Notes: generated by a model from the letters alone, not told the origin. 32,000 nt of DNA from an uncultured Lentisphaeria bacterium (GCA_951812855.1 OX638337.1:1770001-1802000), one strand, 5' to 3'; positions 3,911-24,630 are shown, numbered from the stretch's first letter. Numbers and translations: made by a program.

Positions 3911-4255
3911 AAATTAATTTATGAATTGTGTATCCTATCGAATATGATTCGGTTTTCAATAGGTTCTCGGCAATACAGCCACCGGGAAACACGGAGCTGA
4001 GTAAACTCACGTGTCATGTCCTGGCACTGTGCTCCAGAACGAGTCATTTGAGCCGTATTTGTTTATCGCTTCGCACACAAATATGCTTCACTCTGAACAA
4101 AATGGCTCAGCTCCAGGCTTAATTTTGGGCATAATTTATTTAATCTCAATGAATTCTGCTGAATATCACCAACTTATTTATTTCGTGATAATTACAAGCA
4201 AAAAATACGGAGTTATCACAAAACAGTTCAGACGTTTTACAAGATATCCATTTTG

Positions 4256-4272
4256 TGATAATAATATTATCA
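4256..4272. promoter_or_regulatory. Perfect 17-bp palindrome TGATAATAATATTATCA (Fur-family-like operator arms) just upstream of the RBS of the 4296 gene
   Basis: The palindrome was checked base by base: 4256 pairs with 4272 and so on inward to 4263/4265, with the centre at 4264. The arms TGATAAT/ATTATCA equal the arms of the 7-1-7 Fur box, but the spacer is 3 nt instead of 1. Further GTGATA/TATCAC half-sites occur at 4164-4169, 4185-4191 and 4213-4219. Confidence 0.4.
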
Positions 4273-4295
4273 GGTGACAAACGGAAGGAGCAAAA

Positions 4296-4688
4296 ATGAA
4301 GAAACGAATCTCTTTTGTTTTAATGCTAATTTCATTGGCTGGTCAAAGTTGGGCACAAGAAACAAACCGAAACCAATTCTCCAGTTCTCCAGAGACATCT
4401 CGCTGCCAGATTATACAGTCTGAACCGGCCGCAAGGATCACACTGAAAATTGATAAATATACAGGGCATGTCTTTCAACTTGTTCGAGGTAGTAAAGGGT
4501 TGTCCTGGCAATTGATAATGGCGGAAAAACACCCCGAAGATAATGCGACACCAAACCAAGTCAATTATCAGGTTTTTACATCTGGTCTGGCAGTAAGGAT
4601 GACATATTTGTTGAATGTAAATACTGGTGCCACGTGGCAGTTAGCCAGGGACGATACGTTTGGTGTTTTCTGGGCGGCTTTGGAGTGA
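4296..4688 (+). CDS. Small secreted hypothetical protein (130 aa) with an N-terminal signal peptide
   Basis: A strong RBS (AAGGAG at 4285-4290) precedes the ATG. The signal peptide reads MKKRISFVLMLISLAGQSWA/QE. The mature part contains two similar segments (KYTGHVFQLVRG... and NVNTGATWQLARD...). I recognise no family. Confidence 0.75.
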   Translation: MKKRISFVLMLISLAGQSWAQETNRNQFSSSPETSRCQIIQSEPAARITLKIDKYTGHVFQLVRGSKGLSWQLIMAEKHPEDNATPNQVNYQVFTSGLAVRMTYLLNVNTGATWQLARDDTFGVFWAALE

Positions 4689-4790
4689 GTATCATTTAAC
4701 AAGGGCTGCATTCGGATGGCAATTTCGCTACGCTTTATTGTTGCTGGTGAGCTGAGTTCTTATGTACAATAAAAATGGAGCAAAAAACAA

Positions 4791-5173
4791 ATGAAGTTTA
4801 AATATTTTAGCCTACTGATTTTAACGGCGTCCATTCTCTCCGGTTGTTCAACCACTGGCCTGGTTCAGGGATGCAGGCCAAGTCAATGCAAATTAGTCCT
4901 GGTACAACGAAAAGCGAGGTTATCTCTATTCCTGGCGTTCCAGGAGACCGGAGCTTCGAGGGCAAGGGTGAAGCCTGGCAATACTGTTCAACAGGGTTTT
5001 CTTATGATAAGTACATGATTGTATGGTTTCATGAGGGCATTGTTCACGGCCTTACTTCTTCTTATAGAAGCGATTCTGCCATGGGTATTTGTATGGAAAG
5101 ATTTTCCGGTGTTGATTGGTGGTTTCAAGCTCCTGAGGACTTGAAAAGAAAACTCAAAATGAAACATGAGTAA
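4791..5173 (+). pseudogene. Lipoprotein gene split across two frames, with a lipobox signal peptide in one frame and a possible SmpA/OmlA (BamE)-like body in the -1 frame
   Basis: ORF 4791-5018 begins MKFKYFSLLILTASILSGC (lipobox LSGC) and then becomes low-complexity Arg/Leu-rich sequence. ORF 4844-5173, in the -1 frame, has no signal peptide of its own. It reads like a folded periplasmic domain (MQISPGTTKSEVISIPGVPGDRSFEG..EAWQYC...). Both frames are open across 4820-5018, so one indel near 4855-4875 would join them. Confidence 0.5.
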
Positions 5174-5209
5174 CAGCGACTGCACGCATAATCGGGTAAA
5201 GCGGAGATT

Positions 5210-5530
5210 TTAACTCCCCCTTCCCAGACCACCGGGGATGCGGGTTCTGTTCATTAAGAGCCGGAGGCTCCGCAGTGAAGAACGATCCATTGATTGCTGC
5301 CTGATGTCAGGGACACCCTGATTCCGTAACCATTGATTGCTGAAGGTCTGTTGGACGATGCGATTACTGCTCATCCGCCGGTATCCTTTACGACTTCGAG
5401 CTGCCATCTTTACTTCATCGGGATTCGCTTCCAACCTGAGCAAGGTTAGCCGCCCGGCTCTTTGATTCATTAACAATTAACCGCAACCGTCTCTTCAGGT
5501 ATCGACACAAACTGCTCAAGACCGACGAGC
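5210..5530 (-). mobile_element. Remnant of a group II intron-encoded reverse transcriptase/maturase (C-terminal tail only)
   Basis: The 88-aa ORF contains ...EANPDEVKMAARSRKGYRRMSSNRIVQQTFSNQWLRNQGVPDI... This matches the characteristic C-terminal tail of bacterial group II intron IEPs (..SRKGYWRmS.s..l..al.n.w....GL.sl). Just upstream, in another frame, I read YLKRRLRLIV.ESKSR, resembling the maturase ..IRRRLR...WKQWK segment, which suggests a frameshifted relic. The RT palm/finger region is absent. The segment is visibly GC-richer than its surroundings. Confidence 0.55.
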
Positions 5531-5588
5531 TGCACTGATACTCTTGACGAAGATCAGAAAATCATCTGATAAAATATATTCCTGCTTC

Positions 5589-6992
5589 TTACTTTTCATA
5601 GTTAAGGCGTTTGTCCAATGTTGTTCGACTCATCCCGAATACGCGTTGCACCTCAGATTTATTACCCTCACAGTGATCCAGAGCAGATTTTGCAAACATA
5701 TAGTCTATTTTTCTTTCGATAATCTTCGGGTCGTGCCCCTGTTCAATTTCGTGTTTAATTAGAGATTGAATTTTCGAACTTAAATTATTTAAAGAGGGTT
5801 TTACATGGCTGCTGATATTTTTTTTAGGTTGGAGGAGGAGGGTGAATAGTTCAGTTTCCAGGGTTGAGCTTTCAGCACAAACTGCTGCACTTTGCATTAA
5901 TTGGTATAATTCACGAATATTTCCGGGCCATGAATAACTCTGGAGATAATCAATTGCATGGGGTGTTAAAGTCAAGGGAGGAACGTTCAGCAGGATTTGG
6001 AGTTTTGACAGAAAATGTTGTACCAATAAAGGAATGTCTTCAATTCGTTCGCGAAGTGCGGGTAAATCAATCTGACATCCTTTGATTCTATAAAACAGAT
6101 CCTCCCGAAATGTCTTTTTTTCTATCGCTTCTTCAAGATTACAATTTGTCGCTGCAATTATACGAATATCAACATGTAACGTTTCTTCTCCCCCGACCCG
6201 TTCGAATTGACCGTCTTCGAGTACCCGCAATAATTTAGATTGCGTATCCAGGGGCATATCACCGATTTCATCAAGGAACAATGTCCCGCCATCTGCACGT
6301 TCGAAATATCCTGTTCGCTGTTTAAGAGCACCGGTGAATGCACCTTTTTCATGACCAAATAATTCACTGTTTGCAAGTTCCGATGTGATTCCAGCACAAT
6401 TCAATGTGACAAACGGTGTTTTGTGTCGCGGTCCCTGGTTATGAATCACTCTTGCGAGTAACCCTTTACCCGTACCGGTTTCACCCAATATTAGAACTGA
6501 AATAAGATCAGCCGGTGCTATTTTTTTAACACTTTTAATCGCCTTTTTTATACTTACTGACTTCCCGATAATTTCCTGAATTACCGGTTCATTCTGTTCG
6601 TAGTCATTTTCTATTTCAAAAACTGAGAAATCAGATGTTACAATGCTGTCCGGCAGATGTTTTGAAATGGAATCATTCTCTAATTTGAATTCGTATTCAA
6701 GATGACCAAATCGAATGAGATCACCATCTGACAAAGGCTGTTTTGTTTGCTTCTCAAGCCGATTGAATGTGTGGAGCAATCCCTTCTTCTTCCACCATGT
6801 CCCATGTTTGCTTGCTGAATCATATAAACAAAATTCTCCATTTGTTTTTTCTATTACAGCATGAAACCTGGAAATATCGATGTCACCCGAAATCGTGATA
6901 AAACAGGAGCTGCTGCGTCCGATTTCATTCTTACCGTCCTGCAGTACATATTTTTCGGTGGATTTAACTTTCTGAAGAATGCCTTTTTCCAT
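5589..6992 (-). CDS. Sigma-54-dependent transcriptional activator (bEBP) with an N-terminal FHA domain, an AAA+ core and a C-terminal HTH
   Basis: An FHA-like N-terminus spans about aa 20-100 ([24 protein letters not shown]...[12 protein letters not shown]...DGDLIRFG). The AAA+ core shows Walker A GETGTGKG (aa 170-177), an intact GAFTGA (aa 217-222, nt 6327-6344) and Walker [12 protein letters not shown] Fis-type HTH lies at aa ~430-465. There is no receiver domain. Confidence 0.9.
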
Positions 6993-7187
6993 GAACGTTA
7001 TTTCTATGGCTGTGGCTACTATAAAATTATTTGCTGAAGAAATAAGTTTTCAGCATTGTATAAATAGTAAACTGTTACCGATATCTTAATTTATCCAAAT
7101 AGGATAAAGAACGTTTTATATTGATTGTGAAAAATAAATTCTGAAAATTATCAAAAACTGTACTCTGTTCCCGTAACATTTTTGTAT

Positions 7188-8732
7188 TCAATAGATTACA
7201 CCGAGATTACGGATTTCTACTGTTTCAGAATAATTTTCATTCAATGGGTTTGTAAACAATAATTTGAGTATCTGTATGCGTTTCACATCATCTTCCGTAA
7301 AATGACGTGAGTCAAGCTGAGGAAACGATTTTACCATATTTGAAATATTAAAACGAAACGACGTCCATTCACGGTTTACTAATTTTGAATCGTGCAGGCC
7401 TGATTCCAAATTTGCATCATCTAATGTTGAGATACCGGCATAGACACGTGTACCAGAACCGTGCTCCCCTTTGATATCAACCCTGAATTCCAGATTCCCT
7501 TCAACGTTTAGCGGTTCGTTAAACGTGACCATCACACCAACTCCCCACTGCGAATCATACCAGGAGACCTCTATTGCAAGTTTAGTGTTTTCAGGATTGA
7601 CATTTGAACTCAGTATGCCCGTACCAAAAGTTTTCCAATTTTCATCAAAGCGAACAAATGAAAGCTCATCGGTATCATTGACAACCGCATCATTAACCGT
7701 ATCGCTTGCGTTCAATTTGGGAGAATCGCTCAGACTAATATCAATTGCAGAAACCGGTGTATCCGGTTCCGGAATAATCGTTTCAGAATCACTATCCGTC
7801 TGAGTAACGACTAATTGCTGTTCCTCCTGAGAGAGGGCATCCGGTACGTTAATAACCTGAGTAATTGACTTCTGAGGTTTACTGTTGTTACTATTCCGGG
7901 ATAGTGAGAGAATAATAATTGCCATGACGAATAAAAAACTTAGAGGCAAATATAATTTGGAAATTTTGTTGGCATTTTTCGCAATTTTTACCAAGACTAC
8001 CGAGATATCATCTTTTGCCCCGCGCTCTTTTGAGATATCGATAAACTCTTTAGCAATAGACTCAACACCTTTTGTTTTATTATTTTTTAGAATATCTGCC
8101 ACTTCGCTATCACTTAGATGTCTGTTCAGACCGTCAGAGCAAAGCAGGAAAAGGTCATCTGCATTCACTTTTATTTTCGTTGAGTTCAATCGTAAATCTG
8201 ATTTAATGCCGACAGCATTTGTAATCCTGCCTTTTATAATAGAGGGGACCCTGGTTTCATCTTCATATCCCATTTGTGCGGCCATGCTGTGGTCCTGGGT
8301 GAGTCGTTTAAGGGAGTTTCGGCGAAACCTGTAAATCCTGCTGTCACCGGCATGCAATACCTGTGCGGACCCATTTTGTGGTTCCATTATCAATATTGCC
8401 ACTGTAGACCCCATCCCTTCAATATCGTTGGAATGGATTGTTTTGTTAACATCAGAAATTGCTGTTGTTATCGAATCTAAAACATTAAAATGACTGTAAT
8501 TTTGGGCAAATGACTCACATTCATGGGTGATTGAGTTGACGATTAAATCACTTGCCTCTTTACCTCCGGCTGCCCCCCCGATCCCGTCAGCGACACAAAA
8601 AACACCATAATTTTGATCGTACCAACTGGTATGAGAATCCTCATTTTCTGACTTTGTCGCACCTTTTTGGCTGAGGGCAGCACTGTGTTCAATACTGAAC
8701 GGGGAATTTAATAGAGATGTTATAGGATTCAT
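7188..8732 (-). CDS. Membrane-anchored PP2C-family Ser/Thr phosphatase with an extracytoplasmic beta-sandwich (CBM/CIA30-like) C-terminal domain
   Basis: PP2C motifs are present: ENEDSH, FCVADGIGGAAGGKEAS, VLHAGDSRIY, LLCSDGL and GAKDDISVVLVKI. One TM helix lies at aa 260-277 (LYLPLSFLFVMAIIILSL, nt 7902-7955). An acidic S/T/D-rich linker follows, then a ~160-aa C-terminal domain (nt 7191-7664). Confidence 0.9.
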   Translation of the reverse strand: MNPITSLLNSPFSIEHSAALSQKGATKSENEDSHTSWYDQNYGVFCVADGIGGAAGGKEASDLIVNSITHECESFAQNYSHFNVLDSITTAISDVNKTIHSNDIEGMGSTVAILIMEPQNGSAQVLHAGDSRIYRFRRNSLKRLTQDHSMAAQMGYEDETRVPSIIKGRITNAVGIKSDLRLNSTKIKVNADDLFLLCSDGLNRHLSDSEVADILKNNKTKGVESIAKEFIDISKERGAKDDISVVLVKIAKNANKISKLYLPLSFLFVMAIIILSLSRNSNNSKPQKSITQVINVPDALSQEEQQLVVTQTDSDSETIIPEPDTPVSAIDISLSDSPKLNASDTVNDAVVNDTDELSFVRFDENWKTFGTGILSSNVNPENTKLAIEVSWYDSQWGVGVMVTFNEPLNVEGNLEFRVDIKGEHGSGTRVYAGISTLDDANLESGLHDSKLVNREWTSFRFNISNMVKSFPQLDSRHFTEDDVKRIQILKLLFTNPLNENYSETVEIRNLGVIY

Positions 8733-8929
8733 CTATTGGGATTTACTACTTTCAATTCAGCCGGTTTCCCGGAACTTGTTCGATTATAATTTTTTGTAAT
8801 TCATTGGGCCCGGATATGTTGACAGAAAGACTCTGTTTATATGTCAATTGCTTCGAAAGAGAATTTTTAGTGTCCCGCTGAAACGATTCTGTTTCAGTCA
8901 AGTTATGCCTGTGCTCAAATCTACATATT

Positions 8930-8958
8930 TAATTTTGGGGAATTATATACTTAACTCC
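8930..8958. repeat. Left end of the R-M cassette, with direct repeat TAATTTT (8930-8936) followed by terminal inverted repeat ggggaattatatacttaactcc (8937-8958)
   Basis: The reverse complement of 8937-8958 is ggagttaagtatataattcccc. It aligns with 10187-10211 (ggagtcaagtatgtatataattccc) at 20 of 22 positions, with a 4-nt insertion (atgt) in the right copy. The 7-mer taatttt immediately outside is repeated exactly at 10212-10218. Confidence 0.75.
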
Positions 8959-8985
8959 AAAACATACACAATGTGGCGTATGTTT

Positions 8986-9522
8986 TTATGAAAAACATGA
9001 CTGGCACCATGTTTGGAATTGCACCATGTCCATAACCATTATTTTCCGATCATCATTTTTGGTGCGCATTTTTCTAGTTTCCACCGCTTTTTTTAACCAG
9101 TATAACGCCCCCTTTTTCCAACCCTTTCCATCAATTAAGATGATGATCTCTTTTTCCTCCCAACGCTCAATTGCGTTGAGATAAACATAGGGCAATTTTT
9201 CATCTACACTACCGCTAACAGCTTGCCATTTGCACTCTACCCTGCAAAATATATTGTTTTGTGGGTCAGATATTATAAATTCACTCCTACTTAAAGACTG
9301 GGAAGAAGGAGTTGGTACATGTTCAGTTTCAGCAACTTTATAAATTGATATATATGGTGCATTTTTAATCAGGTATCTCTGTTTTTTTTGTGCTTGTGTT
9401 AGTTTTATCCATTCACGATAGGGTATAATATCAAACCCTCTTGGTATTAGAGCGTTGCTAACAACCCCCTCAAGAATTTTCCCAGATTTATTGGCGTTTG
9501 AACCTTGACTAGGCATTGTCAT
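8986..9522 (-). CDS. Putative type II restriction endonuclease (PD-(D/E)XK fold)
   Basis: The 178-aa ORF has a candidate catalytic motif D86...E96-C-K98 (SEFIISDPQNNIFCRVECKWQ) followed by GSVDEKLPY. Its ATG overlaps the stop codon of the upstream methyltransferase gene (ATGA at 9519-9522), implying translational coupling. The family and specificity are not recognisable by eye. Confidence 0.55.
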   Translation of the reverse strand: MTMPSQGSNANKSGKILEGVVSNALIPRGFDIIPYREWIKLTQAQKKQRYLIKNAPYISIYKVAETEHVPTPSSQSLSRSEFIISDPQNNIFCRVECKWQAVSGSVDEKLPYVYLNAIERWEEKEIIILIDGKGWKKGALYWLKKAVETRKMRTKNDDRKIMVMDMVQFQTWCQSCFS

Positions 9523-10130
9523 CTAACTTTAATGCAAGTGCCATGCACTTTGAAATGTGTTTTGAATTTTTTATATTGTTCACCAAAATAAAAAAACACC
9601 TGACCCCGTGTGTTGTTGCTGACCACCTTATGATCGGTGTTCCAAAAACTAATACGATGATGGGTCAAGCACAACCCATTACAGCGGGCGATGATTGCCT
9701 GAAACCAACGTGTTTCTGTGGCGTTATTAGTCAAAATAATACCTGATTGTATATGCCCTGTCTTGTATTCATTTAGATACTTATTGACACAATCAATGAT
9801 TAACTTGGCTGAGTAGGGTGGGTTCATAAAAACAGAGACCCGTTTTGCTACTGCCCAGCTTTGATTTAACCCATTAGTATCCTCATTAAAATAATATTTT
9901 GCTTTTACGATTTTATTTGCCTGCGGACTTGAAAAAGGATCCAATATAATCTGTCCCATCACTGATTTCGCACTTTCTATATACTCTTCTGGCGTGAACC
10001 AGGCATCGCTCTTTCGATTATGACTAGGAGTGCGTCCGATATAGCCAAGACGATTTTTATTGGCTATACTCCTAGTCACTGGATTAGGACATGAGCGATG
10101 ATTAAATGTGGATATGGTATTGTCTTGCAT
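9519..10130 (-). CDS. DNA N6-adenine methyltransferase of the phage Dam-like family (small, single-domain)
   Basis: The 203-aa ORF shows WFTPEEY, ILDPFSS and catalytic motif IV NPPYS (aa 103-107, nt 9810-9824). This order is typical of the small phage-type Dam family (WxTP ... DP ... NPPY). The target sequence is unknown. Confidence 0.8.
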   Translation of the reverse strand: MQDNTISTFNHRSCPNPVTRSIANKNRLGYIGRTPSHNRKSDAWFTPEEYIESAKSVMGQIILDPFSSPQANKIVKAKYYFNEDTNGLNQSWAVAKRVSVFMNPPYSAKLIIDCVNKYLNEYKTGHIQSGIILTNNATETRWFQAIIARCNGLCLTHHRISFWNTDHKVVSNNTRGQVFFYFGEQYKKFKTHFKVHGTCIKVR

Positions 10131-10167
10131 TAGATGAGTTCCTGATTTAACGCCTTTATTATGATAG

Positions 10168-10194
10168 ATTATATCAGGCGTCTGTTGGAGTCAA
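10168..10194 (-). promoter_or_regulatory. Candidate sigma-70-type promoter for the MTase/REase pair, with the -35 element contributed by the right TIR
   Basis: The minus strand reads TTGACT (10194-10189), then 15 nt, then TATAAT (10173-10168), about 38 nt upstream of the MTase ATG at 10130. The 15-nt spacing is shorter than the optimal 17. An inverted repeat ACGCCT/AGGCGT (10150-10155 and 10176-10181) brackets the -10 element. Confidence 0.3.
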
Positions 10195-10218
10195 GTATGT
10201 ATATAATTCCCTAATTTT
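10187..10218. repeat. Right end of the R-M cassette, with terminal inverted repeat ggagtcaagtatgtatataattccc (10187-10211) followed by direct repeat TAATTTT (10212-10218)
   Basis: See the left-end entry for the alignment. The repeat ends 15 nt from the kinase stop codon (10233-10235). A further partial copy of the TIR tip (tatataatccc, 10221-10231) sits just outside the direct repeat. Confidence 0.75.
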
Positions 10219-10232
10219 GATATATAATCCCT

Positions 10233-13200
10233 TTACTGATCACGAATAGCTGTTGCCATTTTAGATACATCAGTTTGAGATTGACTGTTTAATTCCAATA
10301 TTCCAAATGTTGAAGGATTTCGAGATTTAAATCCCGGGGAGGATGAAATCAAGGTTTTTTTATCCCGATCAGAATCTGCAACAACAATATTAAATCCCAA
10401 CTGATACTCGGGGAAAAAATTTGCTTCCTTCTCATTATAAGGAGTATTAAAAAATTGTTCGTCAGAATCGGAATAAAGGACTCTGTTTTTTCCCATTGAT
10501 ACGGTTTTATTGTTGTAGAGCACCGGGAATGGAATTTCTATTTCCAAAGTATAACCATCAACTGATTTCGATGCGGCTGTTTTTATTTCCCGATTTAAAT
10601 CTGTACTCATTAACGGTATTGATACTGTGGTTTCAGGGGAATTTTTATCAAAATCACCCGGATTTACAAGTAATAAAAAGTCATCGCCGGACATAACACT
10701 TTCTGTAAAATCTTCAGACAACTGTAAATCCAGCCACAGTTCAATATGATCACGATCTTTAACACCGGCCGTCACATTTGTTTCGCTGAGATCTAAATCA
10801 AAAACCCGAAATGCCCAATAAATATAATCTTTATTCCACGCACTATAGTATTCGCATGAAATTGTGTCATTGACAGATTCTTTTTCTGTCAAATTTGATG
10901 TTGTTGACATTACAGCCGGTTCTAAATGTTGCCAATCTTTCAGATTACCATCAACCGATATCAACTGATTGGATTGATAAGAAACAAATCGTGTTAATTC
11001 AGTTTCCGAATTCCTCCATCGTAATAAATTCTGCGGCAATTTTTTTTCTTTGTGAAGATTCATATAAGACATAAATGAATCAATGACAATTCCCCCAAAT
11101 GCATTTTGATTGGTGTAATGATTTGTAACTAACTGAAGTTGCTCTTCCATTGATTTCCAGCCTTCTTCATAAAATGTATTATGTCGAAAAAAATGAATAC
11201 CATCGGCGAAATTTCCAGTTTGATTTGCAATTATCGTTTTTTTAGATACCTGGTTTGCAAATTTTATACAGTTCTCAGACGAATTAATAATTGAAAGGGC
11301 GTTATCATAATAATCTGATAAAATTGTGTAATCAACAATAGAAATAATCTCCTCCAATAACTTCAAATCTGTATTCATTTCACGTGAAAGCATGAAACTT
11401 AATTTGAAATTCTGACCTGGGAATGTCGCAATAAGACCGTTGATTTTTTTTAGCAAAATTAATAAGTTTTCCTGAAACGCCTTGTCACCAGCGATTTGAG
11501 CTGACTGATCTGCATTGAGACCAATTAATAAGCCTTCTATTTTTTGAGCATCCCGGGTTAATTCGTTAAACTCCAATATGCTGCGTATTTGCCGATGTAT
11601 TTCAGAATGTAAGTCTTTTGATGACCAATCCTCTTTGATCATGAAGAGATTTGGAGAAATCTCCTTAGTTTTACATTCATTCAGGAACTGGATTAGGAGA
11701 TTTTCGTTCCGTGAATCTTTAATAAAATAATGATCCGGATTATGGGTTAAAACAAATACAGTATCAATTGCAGCTGTTTCACATAATGAAAATAAATGAC
11801 GCTTTATGATCGGATATAAAACGGGATTTACATCTCTGATTATTAACCCTCGGGAAAGTACAGCATTAGACTCTGCTTCAGGATAGATTACATCATTGCC
11901 TATTTTATCTGACAGGAACATTAGGTCATCTATATAAACAACACCTTTTCCGATATTGTTAAAGGAAAAATTCAGGGAAATAACCTGACTTACGTCGTGC
12001 TCGGTTTTGACTAAATCTAAAGGGAAAATTATTTCCTGCCACTCTCGCGTGATTCCCTTAGGCAAAAAATACTCAGCCTGACCTAATGATATTAGCTGGG
12101 AATCAGATTTTTCGTTTTTATTGGTCACAGTTACTTCGAAGCTTTCATTCCCGACAGTGCCTTTTACCCAGAGTGAGAGCGTTGCGTATTTTTCAAGATT
12201 AAGCTCGTCGAACCGATAGATTAAATCACACATGCCGGCGATCTTATGATCATAAGATACTTTCATGGACATACCACGCTCGCCCTTGAAATATTCAAGA
12301 CTCTTTTTCGGGAGGATAAAATTCGGAGACTGTGCTGCAATTTCAATCCCGTTATTCAATGATAAATCGTTAAAATCGTCAATCAATTTATGACTGTTAT
12401 AATGAATTATTTCAGAAAATAATTTTGAGATGTCATGTCTTAATCTGTCCATGCTACCGGTTTTCACCGGTAATTGATTTAACCTTTCCCCCAATGCTGA
12501 TATTTCAGCAAAAAACAGAAGCTGATCATCCTTGATATCATGTTTGTTTAACGATTTCGGATAGTGATTCTGCAGATATAATAACTCTTTTCGGCATAGA
12601 GATTCAATCCAGATGATATCGTTTGTTGTAATACTTGATACGGAAATGTCCTGATAATTTTCAAAAATATTCCAGGCCAGATCAAAGTCATTACGATTAT
12701 ATCCTGAGAACGGTATTTTTTTCAAATGCCCAAACATATATGTATCTAAATCCCGTCTCAGTTCAGGTTCGGATTTTAAGTCAAAGTCCTGGAGGATCGT
12801 ATTTCTAAAATCAACCATATCCTGAATATTATTTCCTTTTTGGGTAATAATATTTTCACTTATACTTACGATGTGTTCATACACCAGATTCCCGAGTTTA
12901 GACAGATAAAGGAGACGGGTCGACTCAGCCAAACCGGCCTCTGTAATTACCTGGATTCGATGATAAAGAGCAGCCAGGCTGATTAACTGCTGTTCATTTG
13001 CAGTGCCCTGTAAAACAGTCTTAAATTCCGCAATCAAACCGGAGGATTGATTTTGTAAAAAAGAGTCAATAAACTGATAATAATCCTCTGATCTATTCAG
13101 CACATCATCAATAAAAAATTCATTCGGCTTATTTGCCTTTATCTGTTTCAAAGAGAACTTCAGAAACTCGATTGAATCCTGTGGATTACGATTCGCGATC

Positions 13201-16200
13201 ATCGCCATGCTTTCATACCAGGGATCCAGTTTATACCGATAATTATAAATCTGATTCAGTTTATCCGAATCATTTCTTAATGAATGAACTCCCATAAAGC
13301 CCAGCACGAAAGTCAGTGTCAAAAAACTGTATCTGAGAACCTTCATTGTCCAGTCAAATCGTGACGGAACCGGAATGAGATTTGTAATCGGTGTATCAAA
13401 TGATTCAGAGGTATTTCCCCGAGATTTCAGGCGGGATAATTTTCGTAAATTTTTTGAAATTTCACGGCGACATCCAACGACATTTGAATACCGGCTTCCG
13501 GGATCGGGGTGAAGCATTTTTTCAAAAATTTTCAGCGTTCCGGAATCAAACGGGTGATTTAATTTCGGCACCCACCACTTTGCCCCCTTTTTCTTTACCC
13601 ATGAACTTCGTTTAACACACAATTTTTCCCAGTTTGATTCCGGCAGTCTCCATGGATAGGCAGATTGTCCGTTTAAGGTTTCAAACAAACAGAGCCCCAG
13701 ACTGAATATATCTGTTCTGACATCGCCTCTTTCACCGGTTATAATGATTTCCGGTGCCATATATTCGGGTGTTCCGGGAATTGCACCATTTGTACTCTCA
13801 CCCGTATTATCCTTAGCAATTCCCAGATCCAACAGTATGGGAACATCATCATCGTTTATGAATAAATTATCCGGTTTAACATCTCGATGAATAAACCCAT
13901 TCTTATGGCAATGCTCAACGGCTGACAGGTATCCCAGAAACCACCTGAGACCTCGTTCGACATCAATTTTATAGTCGTTCTCCACATCTTCAATTGCATT
14001 TTTGAGAGTCATTCCCCGGAGATATTCCATGACTAACAAAGGTGGACGCTGAATGGTTACATCCATTTGATTGTGGTCTGAGGCGACGTCAATGAATTTT
14101 ACAATATTTTTATGTCGTAAAGATTTTAATATTTTAGATTCATCATTTGCTCGTTCTATAGCTGATTTACGTTTTGAAAAAGATGCATTTTCTGTTCTCT
14201 TACTTACTTTTTGAGGGAACAGTTCATCCTTCAGGCTCTTCATTACAACACTGTCACCGTTACTTAATTGTCTGGCTTTATGAACATCTGCATGTCCTCC
14301 CGTTTCAACAATCTTTTCCAGATATTCATAATGATCATTTGAACCAATAACCACATTGCCAAATTTTTTGTCAATAAGCTTTGCATTGACTAACGATTCC
14401 AGGCGATTAATCGTCTCATTAAGGGCTTTTGGTTGACTTAACATTTTCAAAAGAATCCGGCTGAGTTCCGGTAAACTTGATAATAATAATTCTTTATCGA
14501 GTTCCGGTAACGTAATGTCATCGTTATCTGAATATTCATGTGCATGCCTGCGAAAATGTTTCAAATAGTCTGACGACAAATTATCAGGCGAAAAAATAAC
14601 GATCAACAGTTCGGCAACTCTCCTGATATCCTGCAGCTGATTCTGAATCAGTGACTCATCAGAGCAGCTGTTCAACGTCGAATGCCTAATCAAAATGTCA
14701 TTATTGAGATGCTCGAAAATAACAATTGAATGATGTGTCAGATTCCCGTGATAAAGTCGAAGCGAATGAATCATTTTAAGTTTGTTCAAAATCGCCTTTA
14801 AGACATTGAGAATATCTATAATATGATTTTGCTTAATGTGATTTTTAATAAAATCAGGTAAGAAAGTATGGTTTGTTATTGGATCAAAAACCGCCCATGA
14901 TTTGTTTGTTTTTATATCAGTAATGACCGATTGCGGCAGTCTCAGGTGATTCTCAAGTTGCTTAACAGATGTCAGTTTTTTGAGAATTTTCGTCCGATCA
15001 TCTAAATTTGAATCGGTTACATCCTCTAAAAAAACTATTTTCGGATTACTATGGTTTTTATTTAGAATGATTGACATCACCTTTGCCGCATCATTCTGAA
15101 TTAATTGATAATTCGGATAGCAATCCTTAACACGGTCCAGTAAGTGATCTAAACGACTTGCTTTGGATAAACATTTATTTATAAATTGAGCGTTTGCTTT
15201 TTTACCAGTTTCAGAAACTGCCCGACTATTTTTTACCCGGACCTGAGTTAACAGCTCATTGAGACCTTCCAGTACGTCTGAAAATGTTCTATAACGACAT
15301 TCCCGCACCCAGGCAAACCCCGCCTTAATATGGTGAATTAGTTCTTCATTCATACTCTTTACAGTTTCACCATCATAATCTACCGGTTGATTGAAACCGA
15401 ATGCTGCTGTCGGATAGAATTTTAGAATTTGACCGAGACTGAATCGCTGGGTCCGTTTCCTGGCTAAGCAACGTGTTACAAACGTCCTTAGCTTAGGATT
15501 ATTCTGGAAAACTTCATTCGAAAAATCAGTATTTTCTTCATTGTACGATTTTGCCCACTCTAATAATTCCAGAGGCGTATATGTCTTTAGTTCCGGAATC
15601 GGATTTTTACCGGTAATTGTTTCGTAAAAACACACACCAAAACTAAAGATATCCGATTCTTCATCCCCCCTGTTTGATGACGAATAGAATAATTCAGGGG
15701 CTATATAACCATAGGTGCCCGCAGCTAATCCGGAATCTGCTGTGGCTGTACCGTCTTTTTCAGTGGCAATTGAAAAATCTGTCAACTTTAATGTTCCGTC
15801 ATCACATATGAAGATATTGCTCGGTTTAACATCTCGATGGATAATCTTTTTTTCGTTTATTCTGTGAGCATAGTGAAGTGCCTTTGCACATTGGATAAAA
15901 ATGTTTATTGCATCTTCGAGGGGCACATTGTTAACACGGCTTAATTCTTCTTTCAGAGTATTGCCGTTGAGCCACTCCATGACAAGGAAATCACGGACAA
16001 TCCCACTCTGAGTTGCTCGAATACATGACGTGGCAGAAACAATACTCTCATGCTTGAGATTGATTGGGTAGGCTTCTTTTTTGAGAGATGCGTTATATTT
16101 CAATCGTTTTAATGCAACTCTATTACCTGTCTGCTTATCTTTTGCCTCAAAAACATCACCGAAACTACCGGACCCGATACATTCACCAATGCTGAAAATT

Positions 16201-16223
16201 TGTTCGATATCGATTACAGACAT
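10233..16223 (-). CDS. Giant (1996 aa) transmembrane receptor with tandem Ser/Thr protein kinase domains and a ~1000-aa carbohydrate-binding-type ectodomain
   Basis: Kinase 1 spans aa ~10-270 with GSGSFGDV, VALK (K39), HRD at aa 129-131 (nt 15831-15839), DFS at 149-151 (nt 15771-15779) and GYIAPE. A degenerate kinase-like segment lies around aa 380-560 (LRLYHGNLTHHSIVI). Kinase 2 spans aa ~632-905 with VVMK, HRD at 779-781 (nt 13881-13889), DLG at 799-801 (nt 13821-13829) and PEYMAPE. A TM helix lies at aa ~962-982 (nt 13278-13340). The ectodomain has a beta-sandwich CBM/CIA30-like module (aa 1318-1440), a glycoside-hydrolase-like alpha/beta region (aa ~1455-1745) and a CBM9-like C-terminus (DGNLKDWQHLEP...YIYWAFRVFD...DHIELWLD, aa ~1750-1975). 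Confidence 0.9.
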   Translation of the reverse strand: MSVIDIEQIFSIGECIGSGSFGDVFEAKDKQTGNRVALKRLKYNASLKKEAYPINLKHESIVSATSCIRATQSGIVRDFLVMEWLNGNTLKEELSRVNNVPLEDAINIFIQCAKALHYAHRINEKKIIHRDVKPSNIFICDDGTLKLTDFSIATEKDGTATADSGLAAGTYGYIAPELFYSSSNRGDEESDIFSFGVCFYETITGKNPIPELKTYTPLELLEWAKSYNEENTDFSNEVFQNNPKLRTFVTRCLARKRTQRFSLGQILKFYPTAAFGFNQPVDYDGETVKSMNEELIHHIKAGFAWVRECRYRTFSDVLEGLNELLTQVRVKNSRAVSETGKKANAQFINKCLSKASRLDHLLDRVKDCYPNYQLIQNDAAKVMSIILNKNHSNPKIVFLEDVTDSNLDDRTKILKKLTSVKQLENHLRLPQSVITDIKTNKSWAVFDPITNHTFLPDFIKNHIKQNHIIDILNVLKAILNKLKMIHSLRLYHGNLTHHSIVIFEHLNNDILIRHSTLNSCSDESLIQNQLQDIRRVAELLIVIFSPDNLSSDYLKHFRRHAHEYSDNDDITLPELDKELLLSSLPELSRILLKMLSQPKALNETINRLESLVNAKLIDKKFGNVVIGSNDHYEYLEKIVETGGHADVHKARQLSNGDSVVMKSLKDELFPQKVSKRTENASFSKRKSAIERANDESKILKSLRHKNIVKFIDVASDHNQMDVTIQRPPLLVMEYLRGMTLKNAIEDVENDYKIDVERGLRWFLGYLSAVEHCHKNGFIHRDVKPDNLFINDDDVPILLDLGIAKDNTGESTNGAIPGTPEYMAPEIIITGERGDVRTDIFSLGLCLFETLNGQSAYPWRLPESNWEKLCVKRSSWVKKKGAKWWVPKLNHPFDSGTLKIFEKMLHPDPGSRYSNVVGCRREISKNLRKLSRLKSRGNTSESFDTPITNLIPVPSRFDWTMKVLRYSFLTLTFVLGFMGVHSLRNDSDKLNQIYNYRYKLDPWYESMAMIANRNPQDSIEFLKFSLKQIKANKPNEFFIDDVLNRSEDYYQFIDSFLQNQSSGLIAEFKTVLQGTANEQQLISLAALYHRIQVITEAGLAESTRLLYLSKLGNLVYEHIVSISENIITQKGNNIQDMVDFRNTILQDFDLKSEPELRRDLDTYMFGHLKKIPFSGYNRNDFDLAWNIFENYQDISVSSITTNDIIWIESLCRKELLYLQNHYPKSLNKHDIKDDQLLFFAEISALGERLNQLPVKTGSMDRLRHDISKLFSEIIHYNSHKLIDDFNDLSLNNGIEIAAQSPNFILPKKSLEYFKGERGMSMKVSYDHKIAGMCDLIYRFDELNLEKYATLSLWVKGTVGNESFEVTVTNKNEKSDSQLISLGQAEYFLPKGITREWQEIIFPLDLVKTEHDVSQVISLNFSFNNIGKGVVYIDDLMFLSDKIGNDVIYPEAESNAVLSRGLIIRDVNPVLYPIIKRHLFSLCETAAIDTVFVLTHNPDHYFIKDSRNENLLIQFLNECKTKEISPNLFMIKEDWSSKDLHSEIHRQIRSILEFNELTRDAQKIEGLLIGLNADQSAQIAGDKAFQENLLILLKKINGLIATFPGQNFKLSFMLSREMNTDLKLLEEIISIVDYTILSDYYDNALSIINSSENCIKFANQVSKKTIIANQTGNFADGIHFFRHNTFYEEGWKSMEEQLQLVTNHYTNQNAFGGIVIDSFMSYMNLHKEKKLPQNLLRWRNSETELTRFVSYQSNQLISVDGNLKDWQHLEPAVMSTTSNLTEKESVNDTISCEYYSAWNKDYIYWAFRVFDLDLSETNVTAGVKDRDHIELWLDLQLSEDFTESVMSGDDFLLLVNPGDFDKNSPETTVSIPLMSTDLNREIKTAASKSVDGYTLEIEIPFPVLYNNKTVSMGKNRVLYSDSDEQFFNTPYNEKEANFFPEYQLGFNIVVADSDRDKKTLISSSPGFKSRNPSTFGILELNSQSQTDVSKMATAIRDQ

Positions 16224-16440
16224 AATTTTGGAATGGATAACTGAAATAAAATTAGATTGAAAATTTTTTTACGCAGATTGAGTACTCTATACCCGATTGA
16301 ACTCATCAACCAGTAATTAAATTATTACTGATGTCAATACCCTTAACTTACATTGTTATAATAACTAACTAAACATGTTGGAGAGCAAAAAGAAAACACT
16401 AATAAATAGAATCGGAAATTTGTCAATCCAATCTCATCAA

Positions 16441-16462
16441 TACCTGGACAATTGTTCAGGTA
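16441..16462. promoter_or_regulatory. A 22-bp near-perfect palindrome TACCTGGACAATTGTTCAGGTA in the divergent kinase/lepA intergenic region
   Basis: The two arms are complementary at 10 of 11 positions; the exception is a G/T at 16447/16456. The site lies 218 bp upstream of the kinase ATG (minus strand) and 167 bp upstream of the lepA ATG. The central 2-nt spacer makes an RNA hairpin unlikely, so a dimeric protein binding site is more plausible. Confidence 0.3.
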
Positions 16463-16628
16463 TTGAGCAGATTTTTGAAAACCATTAATGAAATACACTT
16501 AACAAATTTCCAGTTAAAACTAATTGCGGAGACGTGATGACACAGTAGATTACAATTCTTTTCAATCATTCAGCCGCACCTTAATTTACGAACATAATTA
16601 TCCGGCAAATACCAGCGTTGTCACACGA

Positions 16629-18429: not shown

Positions 18430-19725
18430 ATGATACAACTCCTGGCTAAATTTATATATAATGTATTCATTTTCGTCGTTTGGCCGTGCCAATTGCTTTT
18501 CAATGAATTGTTTTTGAGCAAACGACGAAAACAAAAACGTGACCTTGGGTTATTATTATCTCAAATCAACCATCGGTTAACCTGGGATAGAGATATAATT
18601 TCGATCCAGCAAAACAGCCAATTACTAAATCTAAAAACTAAGATTGAAACCCTGTCCGGCAATAAGGATACCGATCCGAAATCCCTAAGTGATTTTATCA
18701 GCAATACAACCGAAGAATTACAGAAACTGCTGCCTCAGACTAAATCACACATTAAAGATTGGCTTGAATTACTTGTGGTTGTTTTCGGGGTTGTAATGGG
18801 TGCAAGAGCACTGTTTTTGCAACCCTTTAAGATCCCGACAGGCAGTATGCAGCCAACCTTGTTTGGAATCCACTTTGACTATGATGATAAGATTGAAGAC
18901 CCGAATATTTTTAAAAAAATTTATGATTACGCCAATGAATCGTATCGATACACCAATGTCATCATTGAAGAAGACGGATATTACAAAGGAATAGAACGTA
19001 AGAACCCATTTTATTTTTTCCCCTACTGCAATGTAAAAATAGGCAATAAATCCTATAAAATTCCTGGAGAAAGAGAAAACGTCCTGAAGTATTTAGGAAT
19101 TTACAGGAAAACTCATTATGGCGAAGAAGAATTTAATTATTTCAGAAAAGGACAAGTACTGTTAAAAGGGAAACTGATTTTGGGTGATCATTTATTCGTG
19201 GATCGGGTCCGTTTTAATTTTACAGAACCTAAACGCGGCGACATTACCGTTTTCATCACCGACGGTATAACTGATACAATGGGGAAATCATTAAGGGGAC
19301 GGTATTATATTAAGCGATTGGCGGGATTGCCGGGAGATACACTTCGAATATCTGATCGGAAGTTATATGTAAAAGAAAAGAATGATCACAGATTCAAACT
19401 GGTCGATGGATCAATTCATCCTTCATTTGAAAGGCTTTACAGCTTTAAAGGTGGGTACCGGGGTTATAGTCATTCGGGATTCAGCCGATTTTTGAGAAAT
19501 AACACAGACACCTGTAAATTGGAAGATGATGAATATTTTATGTTAGGAGATAATAGTGAAAACAGTCAAGACAGCCGTTATTGGGGGATAGTACCCCGCA
19601 AAAATATCGTTGGCAGAGCGAATATTGTTTATTGGCCATTTTCCCGGCGATGGGGGTTCACGGATAAAGCAGAACCTGAAGAATTTGATTCGCCCCCTTC
19701 CCGGCATAATCAAGTTATAAATTAA
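18430..19725 (+). CDS. lepB: Signal peptidase I (S26 family), an unusually long form
   Basis: The ORF shows the catalytic Ser motif TGSMQPTL, GDHLFVDRV, the catalytic Lys box YIKRLAGLPGDTL and MLGDNSENSQDSRYWG. The gene starts 2 nt after the lepA stop, preserving the conserved lepA-lepB arrangement. It has a ~120-aa N-terminal extension and a ~100-aa insertion compared with minimal LepB proteins. Confidence 0.9.
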   Translation: MIQLLAKFIYNVFIFVVWPCQLLFNELFLSKRRKQKRDLGLLLSQINHRLTWDRDIISIQQNSQLLNLKTKIETLSGNKDTDPKSLSDFISNTTEELQKLLPQTKSHIKDWLELLVVVFGVVMGARALFLQPFKIPTGSMQPTLFGIHFDYDDKIEDPNIFKKIYDYANESYRYTNVIIEEDGYYKGIERKNPFYFFPYCNVKIGNKSYKIPGERENVLKYLGIYRKTHYGEEEFNYFRKGQVLLKGKLILGDHLFVDRVRFNFTEPKRGDITVFITDGITDTMGKSLRGRYYIKRLAGLPGDTLRISDRKLYVKEKNDHRFKLVDGSIHPSFERLYSFKGGYRGYSHSGFSRFLRNNTDTCKLEDDEYFMLGDNSENSQDSRYWGIVPRKNIVGRANIVYWPFSRRWGFTDKAEPEEFDSPPSRHNQVIN

Positions 19726-24141: not shown

Positions 24142-24630
24142 TTACAGATTTATAAAAATCTGACCCAAAATATGCCGGATCCATTTCCGAACAGTGTATG
24201 CAGCAGCCAATAATACGTTCATGTCATCGCCTTCGATACCTTTCAGGAAATTTCCGGATAATCTGAAATATTCTTGAGACGTCCTGTTACCAGTTCAATT
24301 ACTGCTCCTGGGCGGACGCCTCTACTTGTTTCCATGTCTGTTAATACTTCAGGCAATGTATGTGCGACGCAGTCTCACACCGTCGGCTTCCGCAATTTTC
24401 AGACAGTCTTCAGCAATCTTATGACGAAAATGAACCCGGTCTGATGGGTCACAGGGAAAATTCCACAGACACTCTGATTCACCACTGAAATACTGCCGAT
24501 AAGGATTTTGAACCCAGCCTTCAACTGCTGTCTCATCTCTATAATCACACAACGGCTTTAACAGCAACAAAGACACCATCAAACGAGTTCTCGCCGCAGG
24601 ACGACCAAAATCCGTGTAATACTTCGCCAA
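24142..24630 (-). pseudogene. IS5-family transposase remnant with the N-terminal DUF772-like part joined to the extreme C-terminus and the DDE core deleted
   Basis: ORF 24349-24630 reads ..DFGRPAARTRLMVSLLLLKPLCDYRDETAVEGWVQNPYRQYFSGE..FPCDPSDRVHFRHKI.., the InsH/IS5 N-terminal domain pattern. My translation of 24142-24345 (minus strand, two frames) gives ..RPGAVIELVTGRLKN.. and ..RLSGNFLKGIEGDDMNVLLAAAYTVRKWIRHIL.., the conserved IS5 C-terminal end. Only about 0.5 kb remains of an expected ~1.3-1.5 kb. The segment is GC-richer than its flanks. Confidence 0.6.

Follow-up and report, generated by a model that had tools for sequence, protein, structure and literature searches.

In a 32-kb stretch of DNA from an uncultured Lentisphaeria bacterium (GCA_951812855.1 OX638337.1:1770001-1802000; the whole stretch is referred to as the window), the minus strand of positions 5589-16223 carries a candidate phosphothreonine signalling module made up of a receptor serine/threonine kinase, a PP2C phosphatase of the membrane and an FHA-bearing sigma-54 activator of the bacterial enhancer-binding protein (bEBP) class (Table 1). 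Domains were called with Pfam and NCBIfam, and catalytic motifs were read off the translations. The block holds five minus-strand open reading frames (ORFs) whose boundaries are the same as those given by an earlier reading of this DNA, made without database searches (the sequence-only reading) and, as that reading held, the signalling genes are co-directional and are split solely by a restriction-modification (R-M) gene pair. The intergenic gaps in the block measure 103-254 nt. A scan of the window for terminator-like sites found none on the coding strand between the five genes and one directly past the bEBP stop codon (5514-5530). Since no such site lies between the genes, the R-M insertion need not disrupt co-transcription, for which the block is a candidate. 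Neither an Rfam nor a tRNA scan of the window returned a match. For comparison we used the orthologues of the three signalling proteins from two Verrucomicrobia metagenome-assembled genomes (MAGs), OFTM167 and OFTM198, with the window protein as the reference for all identities.

Table 1. Coordinates of the features discussed, counted from the first nucleotide of the window.
Feature	Coordinates	Strand	Evidence
Receptor Ser/Thr kinase, 1996 aa	10233-16223	-	ORF, Pfam, translation
Kinase domain 1 (KD1), residues 11-268	15420-16193	-	Pfam, motifs, orthologue alignment
Inter-kinase region, residues 269-625	14349-15419	-	between KD1 and KD2
Kinase domain 2 (KD2), residues 626-925	13449-14348	-	Pfam, motifs, orthologue alignment
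Predicted kinase membrane helix, residues 962-979	13287-13340	-	hydrophobic segment, position kept in three orthologues
CBM9-like domain, residues 1757-1979, C-terminal end of ectodomain	10287-10955	-	Pfam CBM9_1
Membrane PP2C phosphatase, 514 aa	7188-8732	-	ORF, Pfam, NCBIfam, AlphaFold2
PP2C beta-sandwich ectodomain, residues 357-513	7194-7664	-	AlphaFold2 pLDDT about 45-90
FHA/AAA+/helix-turn-helix sigma-54 activator (bEBP), 467 aa	5589-6992	-	ORF, Pfam, NCBIfam
FHA domain, residues 24-96	6705-6923	-	Pfam, alignment to M. tuberculosis FhaA
SIVTSD motif of the FHA-AAA+ linker, residues 116-121	6630-6647	-	orthologue alignment
GAFTGA sigma-54 contact loop, residues 217-222	6327-6344	-	translation
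Fis-type helix-turn-helix, residues 437-464	5601-5684	-	Pfam HTH_8
Palindrome TCAATACCTGGACAATTGTTCAGGTATTGA, 30 bp, core TGAACAATTGTTCA	16437-16466	.	divergent kinase/lepA intergenic region
Inserted element with R-M pair, 1,275 bp	8937-10211	.	inverted repeats, direct repeat, absence in relatives
Dam-family N6-adenine DNA methyltransferase, 203 aa	9519-10130	-	ORF, Pfam
PD-(D/E)XK nuclease (PDDEXK_11), 178 aa	8986-9522	-	ORF, Pfam

The receptor consists of a cytoplasmic KD1, an inter-kinase region, KD2, a single membrane helix and an ectodomain of ~1000 residues, and its two orthologues, 1996 and 2004 aa long, align with it from end to end (68% and 36% identity). Pfam Pkinase (PF00069) matched the protein in two stretches (9.5e-84). 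The sequence-only reading had judged both Hanks-type domains catalytically plausible, and we found the full set of motifs, from the Gly-rich loop and beta3 Lys to HRD, the DFG-type Asp and APE, in each: GSGSFG, VALK39, HRD129-131, DFS149-151 and APE in KD1, and a GG-x-A loop, VMK662, HRD779-781, DLG799-801 (DFG in OFTM167) and APE in KD2. In both domains all three orthologues keep the catalytic Lys, the Asp of HRD, the Asn of the catalytic loop, the metal-binding Asp and the Glu of APE unchanged, and the activation loop of each domain is Thr-rich and nearly invariant among them. KD1 is 90% identical to its counterpart in OFTM167 and 64% identical to that in OFTM198, the values for KD2 being 84% and 53%; the two domains share 33% identity with one another. 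The best solved relative of KD1 is Mycobacterium tuberculosis PknA (1.9e-27), and that of KD2 is M. tuberculosis PknB (3.1e-21).

Between the two kinase domains, the inter-kinase region yielded no significant Pfam match, and BLAST showed no resemblance to either of its neighbours. Its residues 490-495 read LYHGNL at the place of the HRD catalytic loop, and a profile search of the PDB ranked STRAD-alpha, a pseudokinase, and DAPK1 highest, with alignments that fall on the catalytic loop and non-significant E-values (0.2-1). As a weak lead, the region may be a degenerate pseudokinase, and the receptor may thus be a kinase-pseudokinase-kinase protein. The predicted membrane helix, which has a hydropathy below 1.5 in the window protein and exceeds the threshold only in the two orthologues (1.87 and 2.53), splits ~960 cytoplasmic residues from the ectodomain, regions of which are 49-65% identical in OFTM167 and 19-37% identical in OFTM198. 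The CBM9-like domain matched CBM9_1 (PF06452) at 35.6-41.9 bits against a cutoff of 23.4, a CBM30-like stretch at residues 1346-1436 stayed below threshold (24.5 against a cutoff of 27), and a PDB profile search returned CBM74 alone, weakly (E = 0.64). A homologue search with residues 1010-1996 gave zero matches, the query itself included, and is hence uninformative. On the one above-threshold match and the two weaker ones, a polysaccharide would be a plausible, if thinly grounded, extracytoplasmic cue.

The phosphatase is, as the sequence-only reading had proposed, a membrane PP2C enzyme (PF13672/PF00481). It spans the membrane once, with the catalytic part on the cytoplasmic side. A catalytic domain (residues 21-252) is followed by a helix (260-279), a disordered linker (289-353) and a beta-sandwich ectodomain, and the protein matches Pfam PP2C_2 (2.1e-14) and NCBIfam Stp1/IreP (5.7e-45). 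The motifs NED, DGIGG, GDSR, SDGL and DDIS are intact and shared by the three orthologues, and the metal-binding residues D32, D49, D130, D200 and D241 are invariant across 40 homologues. The membrane segment at residues 260-277 has a hydropathy of 2.34 and coincides with a helix predicted by AlphaFold2 at 262-279. In the same model the catalytic domain has a pLDDT above 90, and its Foldseek matches are tPphA, PppA (second-best) and PstP, for which the target-normalised TM-scores span 0.83-0.88. The catalytic domain is 73% identical in OFTM167 and 50% identical in OFTM198, and is otherwise nearest to phosphatases of Kiritimatiellia and Verrucomicrobia. The ectodomain occurs in the three orthologues only; it has no Pfam match, and Foldseek on the full model gave catalytic-domain matches only. 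We also considered kinship between this ectodomain and part of the kinase ectodomain, and rejected it as BLASTP found no significant similarity.

The third signalling protein, which is soluble, matches Pfam FHA (PF00498, 7.6e-14), Sigma54_activat (PF00158, 4e-69), AAA_lid_14 and HTH_8 (22.8 bits against a cutoff of 22), and has Walker A (GETGTGKG, 170-177) and Walker B (LFLDEIG, 238-244) motifs. The earlier description of the FHA domain as its sole input domain and of the GAFTGA loop as intact agrees with what we found, there being no further sensory domain. The OFTM198 orthologue reads GAFTSA in place of GAFTGA, with the rest of its AAA+ core conserved. Compared with OFTM167 and OFTM198, respectively, the FHA domain is 80% and 66% identical, the AAA+ domain 85% and 73%, and the C-terminal segment with the helix-turn-helix (residues 421-467), the best-conserved part of the protein, 87% and 83%. 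That these three parts are 66-87% conserved while the linkers drift fits a working activator.

When the FHA domain is aligned to FhaA, G25-R26 of the beta3-beta4 loop and S41-R42-F43-H44 of the beta4-beta5 loop match the GR and SRRH motifs of that protein and are invariant in the orthologues, and the third motif, canonically (S/T)-N-G-T in the beta6-beta7 loop, reads S61-K62-H63-G64-T65. The sequence-only reading had tied its proposal to the conserved Arg, Ser and Asn residues of this binding site. Arg26 and Ser41, together with His44, are present; the Asn is not, being conservatively replaced by His63 in all three orthologues, which likewise share Lys62 in place of the preceding Thr/Ser. We tallied these positions in the 148 proteins nearest in similarity, which together have 309 FHA domains. 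Asn occupies its canonical position in 188 of the 309, followed by Ser (28), Gly (20) and His (16, ~5%), and Lys or Arg stands just before that position in 81. Nearly all of the His-bearing domains are canonical in their other motifs. By this tally, the FHA domain of the bEBP is a recurrent minority variant and not a degenerate domain, and since the His variant recurs in otherwise canonical domains, phosphothreonine binding by it is plausible, although not assured. The SIVTSD motif in the linker to the AAA+ domain is invariant in the three orthologues, in a linker that is otherwise 33-58% conserved, and we infer only that its Thr119 is a candidate phospho-acceptor.

The sequence-only reading had suggested comparing gene neighbourhoods for conservation of the trio, and in both relatives found the three genes lie directly next to one another. 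Among 5.8 billion protein clusters searched, the bEBP has two full-length relatives only (81% and 68% identity), and the full-length relatives of the PP2C phosphatase come from the same two MAGs only. When the FHA domain and linker (residues 1-135) were used as a query against 1.84 billion representatives, the specific matches were the bEBP cluster and one 95-aa fragment, the rest being generic FHA domains of at most 47% identity. A genome scan with the kinase alignment returned the same two relative genomes, along with two Planctomycetota kinases of an ordinary kind, neither of which has a PP2C or bEBP gene in its vicinity. The gene order in OFTM167, lepA, kinase, PP2C and bEBP, matches that of the window, and LepA is 91% identical between the two. 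In OFTM198 the flanks are wholly different: a Mur ligase and a hydrolase gene upstream of the trio, and Laminin_B-like and phosphonate-synthesis genes downstream, take the place of lepA and valS. Nothing else argues as strongly that the three genes are functionally linked as the persistence of the trio in changed surroundings, seen in these two comparisons.

This evidence also bears on the possibility that the kinase and phosphatase serve envelope or growth control in general, as PknA/PknB-PstP do, and act on other substrates, and that the activator is a mere neighbour whose FHA domain works without phosphate or reads a different kinase. The conserved change from Asn to His63 in the loop that binds the phosphothreonine peptide would fit such an arrangement, as would a sub-threshold Pfam match to the YscD-type cytoplasmic FHA-like family, gaps between the genes that could hold separate promoters, and the existence of another FHA-bEBP (P0045) without a linked kinase. 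A chance neighbour is harder to reconcile with a trio that stays contiguous in completely different surroundings, or with full-length relatives of the bEBP and PP2C that, in the collection searched, are restricted to the same three lineages, the kinase-based scan having arrived at the same two genomes; the remaining phosphothreonine-binding residues, moreover, are canonical, and the His recurs in otherwise canonical FHA domains. We consider a mere neighbourhood of this kind unlikely.

The sequence-only reading found no convincing sigma-54 promoter in the window, and our scans bear this out. TGGCAC-N5-TTGCW with up to two mismatches occurs 12 times against 12.3 expected, and a weighted scan, for which the matrix was our own approximation of the published consensus, gave a best score in the window of 11.7, within the range of the maxima from 20 shuffles (10.7-17.2), and zero matches in any of the block's four gaps between genes. 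The regulon of the activator may lie elsewhere in the genome. The palindrome between the divergent kinase and lepA genes occurs once where 0.01 matches would be expected. OFTM167 has a homologous palindrome in the corresponding position, and also a second related copy (8803-8832 and 8970-8990 of locus L005). The two OFTM167 palindromes bracket a sigma-54-like sequence, TGGCTTTTAAATTGC (L005 8903-8918), which is absent from the window. It lies within an OFTM167-specific insertion, and we rejected it as a shared autoregulatory promoter. A sigma-70-like TTGACA element ~100 nt upstream of the kinase start is conserved in the window and OFTM167, suggesting ordinary transcription of the module itself.

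A lack of sigma-54 promoters in 32 kb would also be seen if the activator were no longer sigma-54-dependent, either because rpoN had been lost from this small genome or because the protein had become a conventional sigma-70 regulator. The GAFTSA of one orthologue points the same way, and small genomes are often without sigma-54 (PMC3162934). Conversely, the small genome of Chlamydia retains sigma-54 with a single activator (PMC3162934), and the conservation of GAFTGA, of both Walker motifs and of the AAA+ core (73-85%) would be unexpected without selection for contact with sigma-54. Loss of sigma-54 dependence is in our view very improbable.

Several lines of evidence argue for a joint function of the three proteins. 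KD1 and KD2 are nearest to PknA and PknB, and the phosphatase to PppA and PstP, and each of these enzymes works with FHA proteins in a known module. The expected domains are present with their catalytic motifs intact, and the FHA domain keeps its G-R, S-x-x-H and S..G-T residues. The trio is contiguous in both relatives, and on the coding strand a terminator-like site lies just after the bEBP stop and none between the genes. We therefore consider it fairly probable, from comparative evidence of this kind, that the trio is a phosphothreonine signalling module with the sigma-54 activator as its output. A ligand, possibly a glycan, would bind the kinase ectodomain and lead to autophosphorylation of the Thr-rich activation loops. 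The FHA domain of the bEBP would then dock on phosphothreonine of the kinase, and the bEBP would itself be phosphorylated, most plausibly at Thr119 of SIVTSD. Contacts between FHA domains and phosphothreonine of adjacent protomers might lift repression or favour formation of the AAA+ hexamer, which would open sigma-54 promoters elsewhere in the 1.94-Mb genome by way of GAFTGA. The PP2C phosphatase would reset the phosphorylation state, and its own ectodomain suggests that conditions outside the cytoplasm, the same ones that the kinase meets, control its activity or its position.

The same components could operate with the opposite sign. The FHA domain might tether the bEBP to the phosphorylated membrane kinase and so keep it off DNA, until PP2C activity or loss of the cue freed the activator. 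The anatomy of such a system would be identical to that of activation by phosphorylation, and nothing in the sequence tells the two apart; kinase and phosphatase each have an ectodomain of their own, so that either could be the regulated step, and the activation loops of both kinase domains are Thr-rich and nearly invariant. The conserved Thr of the linker is more easily explained if the activator is itself a substrate, and we regard sequestration as quite unlikely.

Several points weigh against a phosphothreonine module that ends in sigma-54 transcription. The trio was found in three genomes only, and its co-conservation thus rests on two independent comparisons. P0045 has neither a kinase nor a phosphatase gene nearby, indicating that adjacency to such genes is no general rule for FHA-bEBPs, and the canonical Asn of the FHA domain has been lost in every orthologue. 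Neither the window nor the OFTM167 and OFTM198 loci contain a sigma-54 promoter above chance or a conserved enhancer, and there is no rpoN in the window, which covers 32 kb of the 1.94-Mb genome. A single-sequence AlphaFold2 model of ectodomain residues 1290-1996 had a pLDDT of 33 and was unusable. Every mechanistic step of the proposed relay is inferred.

A bolder version of the signalling module can also be put forward, which we hold to be doubtful in its full form. Here this lineage would have made its own fusion of FHA and AAA+ domains and built a circuit of one kinase, one phosphatase and one activator, possibly serving the only sigma-54 regulon of the genome, in which the tandem kinase-(pseudokinase)-kinase would mark SIVTSD and the FHA domains of neighbouring protomers would read the mark and assemble the hexamer. 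If true, such a self-contained circuit would be the phosphothreonine equivalent of receiver-domain control in NtrC.

The R-M pair that separates the kinase and phosphatase genes is a later insertion unrelated to the trio. It is missing from both OFTM167 and OFTM198, in which the PP2C gene directly adjoins that of the kinase, and it lies in an element bounded by terminal inverted repeats of ~30 nt, GGGGAATTATATAC and GTATATAATTCCC, whose 13-nt exact core is found twice where 0.14 matches would be expected. On either side of the element stands a copy of a 7-bp direct repeat, TAATTTT (8930-8936 and 10212-10218). Inverted repeats with a flanking direct repeat are the signature of a transposed cassette, in line with the view of the sequence-only reading that the pair had been inserted. 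The methylase matched Pfam Dam (4.2e-18), with phage_N6A_met below its cutoff and a weak PADLOC match to MTase_II. The nuclease, whose gene begins within the last 4 nt of the methylase gene, matched Pfam PDDEXK_11 (1.1e-33) and no NCBIfam or PADLOC model, and is presumed to be the restriction enzyme; a homologue with 36% identity adjoins a Dam-family methylase on an Alicyclobacillus plasmid (NZ_CP044435.1). The element was also found in strain-variant contigs of the same metagenome, and it looks like a non-autonomous mobile R-M cassette that is fixed in the strain variants of the sample. It resembles mobile type II R-M units in pairing a methylase with a PD-(D/E)XK nuclease, in its overlapping genes and repeats, and in its presence or absence between relatives, and differs from them in that no transposase is encoded within its 1,275 bp.

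Two short alternative contigs of the same assembly carry the same five genes as a block, with near-identical proteins, which indicates that several closely related strains coexist in the sample; a second contig of 1,947,381 bp is also on record. The ~1.7 kb between valS and the bEBP gene (3911-5588) contain only small ORFs of 88-130 aa without a Pfam or NCBIfam match, two of which are annotated as genes in a strain-variant contig of this metagenome. Elsewhere in the window, a 93-aa ORF on the minus strand (24349-24630) matches a DUF772 transposase domain (2.3e-07) and is probably a remnant of an insertion sequence. The signal peptidase I gene (18430-19725, plus strand) encodes 431 aa, of which the S26 domain is confined to 249-402, leaving an unusually long N-terminal extension.

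FHA-bEBPs and linked modules of kinase, PP2C phosphatase and FHA protein are both already known, and the arrangement described here is expected more than surprising. FHA-type sigma-54 activators were reportedly described from Myxococcus xanthus in 2005 (Jelsbak, Givskov & Kaiser, PNAS 102:3010, as cited in PMC12288465 and PMC4320627). The organism has about a hundred Ser/Thr kinases, and to our knowledge no cognate kinase has been assigned to any Myxococcus FHA-bEBP. The M. xanthus proteins share with the window protein the order of N-terminal FHA domain, sigma-54 AAA+ core and helix-turn-helix, and Ser/Thr kinase input has been proposed for both; in our case a candidate cognate kinase and phosphatase adjoin the activator. 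We detected no close relationship between them. Of the 148 proteins whose FHA domains resemble this one most, none has a sigma-54 AAA+ domain, and among the matches listed in a full-length bEBP search, only 1 of the 117 that are not orthologous has an FHA domain, the nearest AAA+ cores belonging to receiver-, GAF- and PAS-type activators. With its FHA and AAA+ kin lying in such different proteins, the fusion may be independent of the Myxococcus FHA-bEBPs, and neither search supports common descent with that lineage.

Among known modules, the most alike is M. tuberculosis PknH-EmbR, in which a receptor kinase acts on a transcription factor with an FHA domain through docking of that domain on phosphothreonine. 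Both systems combine a receptor Hanks kinase that has an extracytoplasmic sensor with an FHA transcription factor. EmbR, however, belongs to the SARP/OmpR-type sigma-70 activators and has its FHA domain at the C terminus, whereas the FHA domain described here is N-terminal, the activator is an AAA+ sigma-54 protein, and a PP2C phosphatase belongs to the block. The pknA-pknB-pstP-fhaA-fhaB locus of M. tuberculosis likewise groups two Hanks kinases, a single-pass membrane PP2C enzyme with an extracellular tail, and FHA proteins. The likeness extends to the individual parts, as KD1 is nearest to PknA and KD2 to PknB, the phosphatase matches PstP, and the FHA domain aligns best to FhaA. In the Lentisphaeria block, by contrast, the two kinases are fused in one polypeptide, the sensor is not of the PASTA type, and the FHA protein is an activator instead of an adaptor. 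A third system, PpkA-PppA-Fha1 of the H1 type VI secretion apparatus of Pseudomonas aeruginosa, is also a linked trio of membrane kinase, PP2C phosphatase and FHA protein. Fha1 acts post-translationally on assembly of the secretion apparatus, while type VI genes are lacking here and the protein with the FHA domain belongs to the sigma-54 activators. Set beside these systems, the trio is a sound comparative-genomics prediction built from known types of parts and not a new mechanism. What is new is that a rare lineage of the Planctomycetes-Verrucomicrobia-Chlamydiae (PVC) group keeps all three as one block, with an unusual tandem-kinase receptor. The block thereby assigns to an FHA-bEBP, a member of a little-studied class of activators, one particular kinase and one particular phosphatase as candidate partners. 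If the pairing is true, it would reveal a route from eukaryote-like Ser/Thr signalling to sigma-54 transcription, in a poorly studied group and in a small genome whose regulon may be simple.

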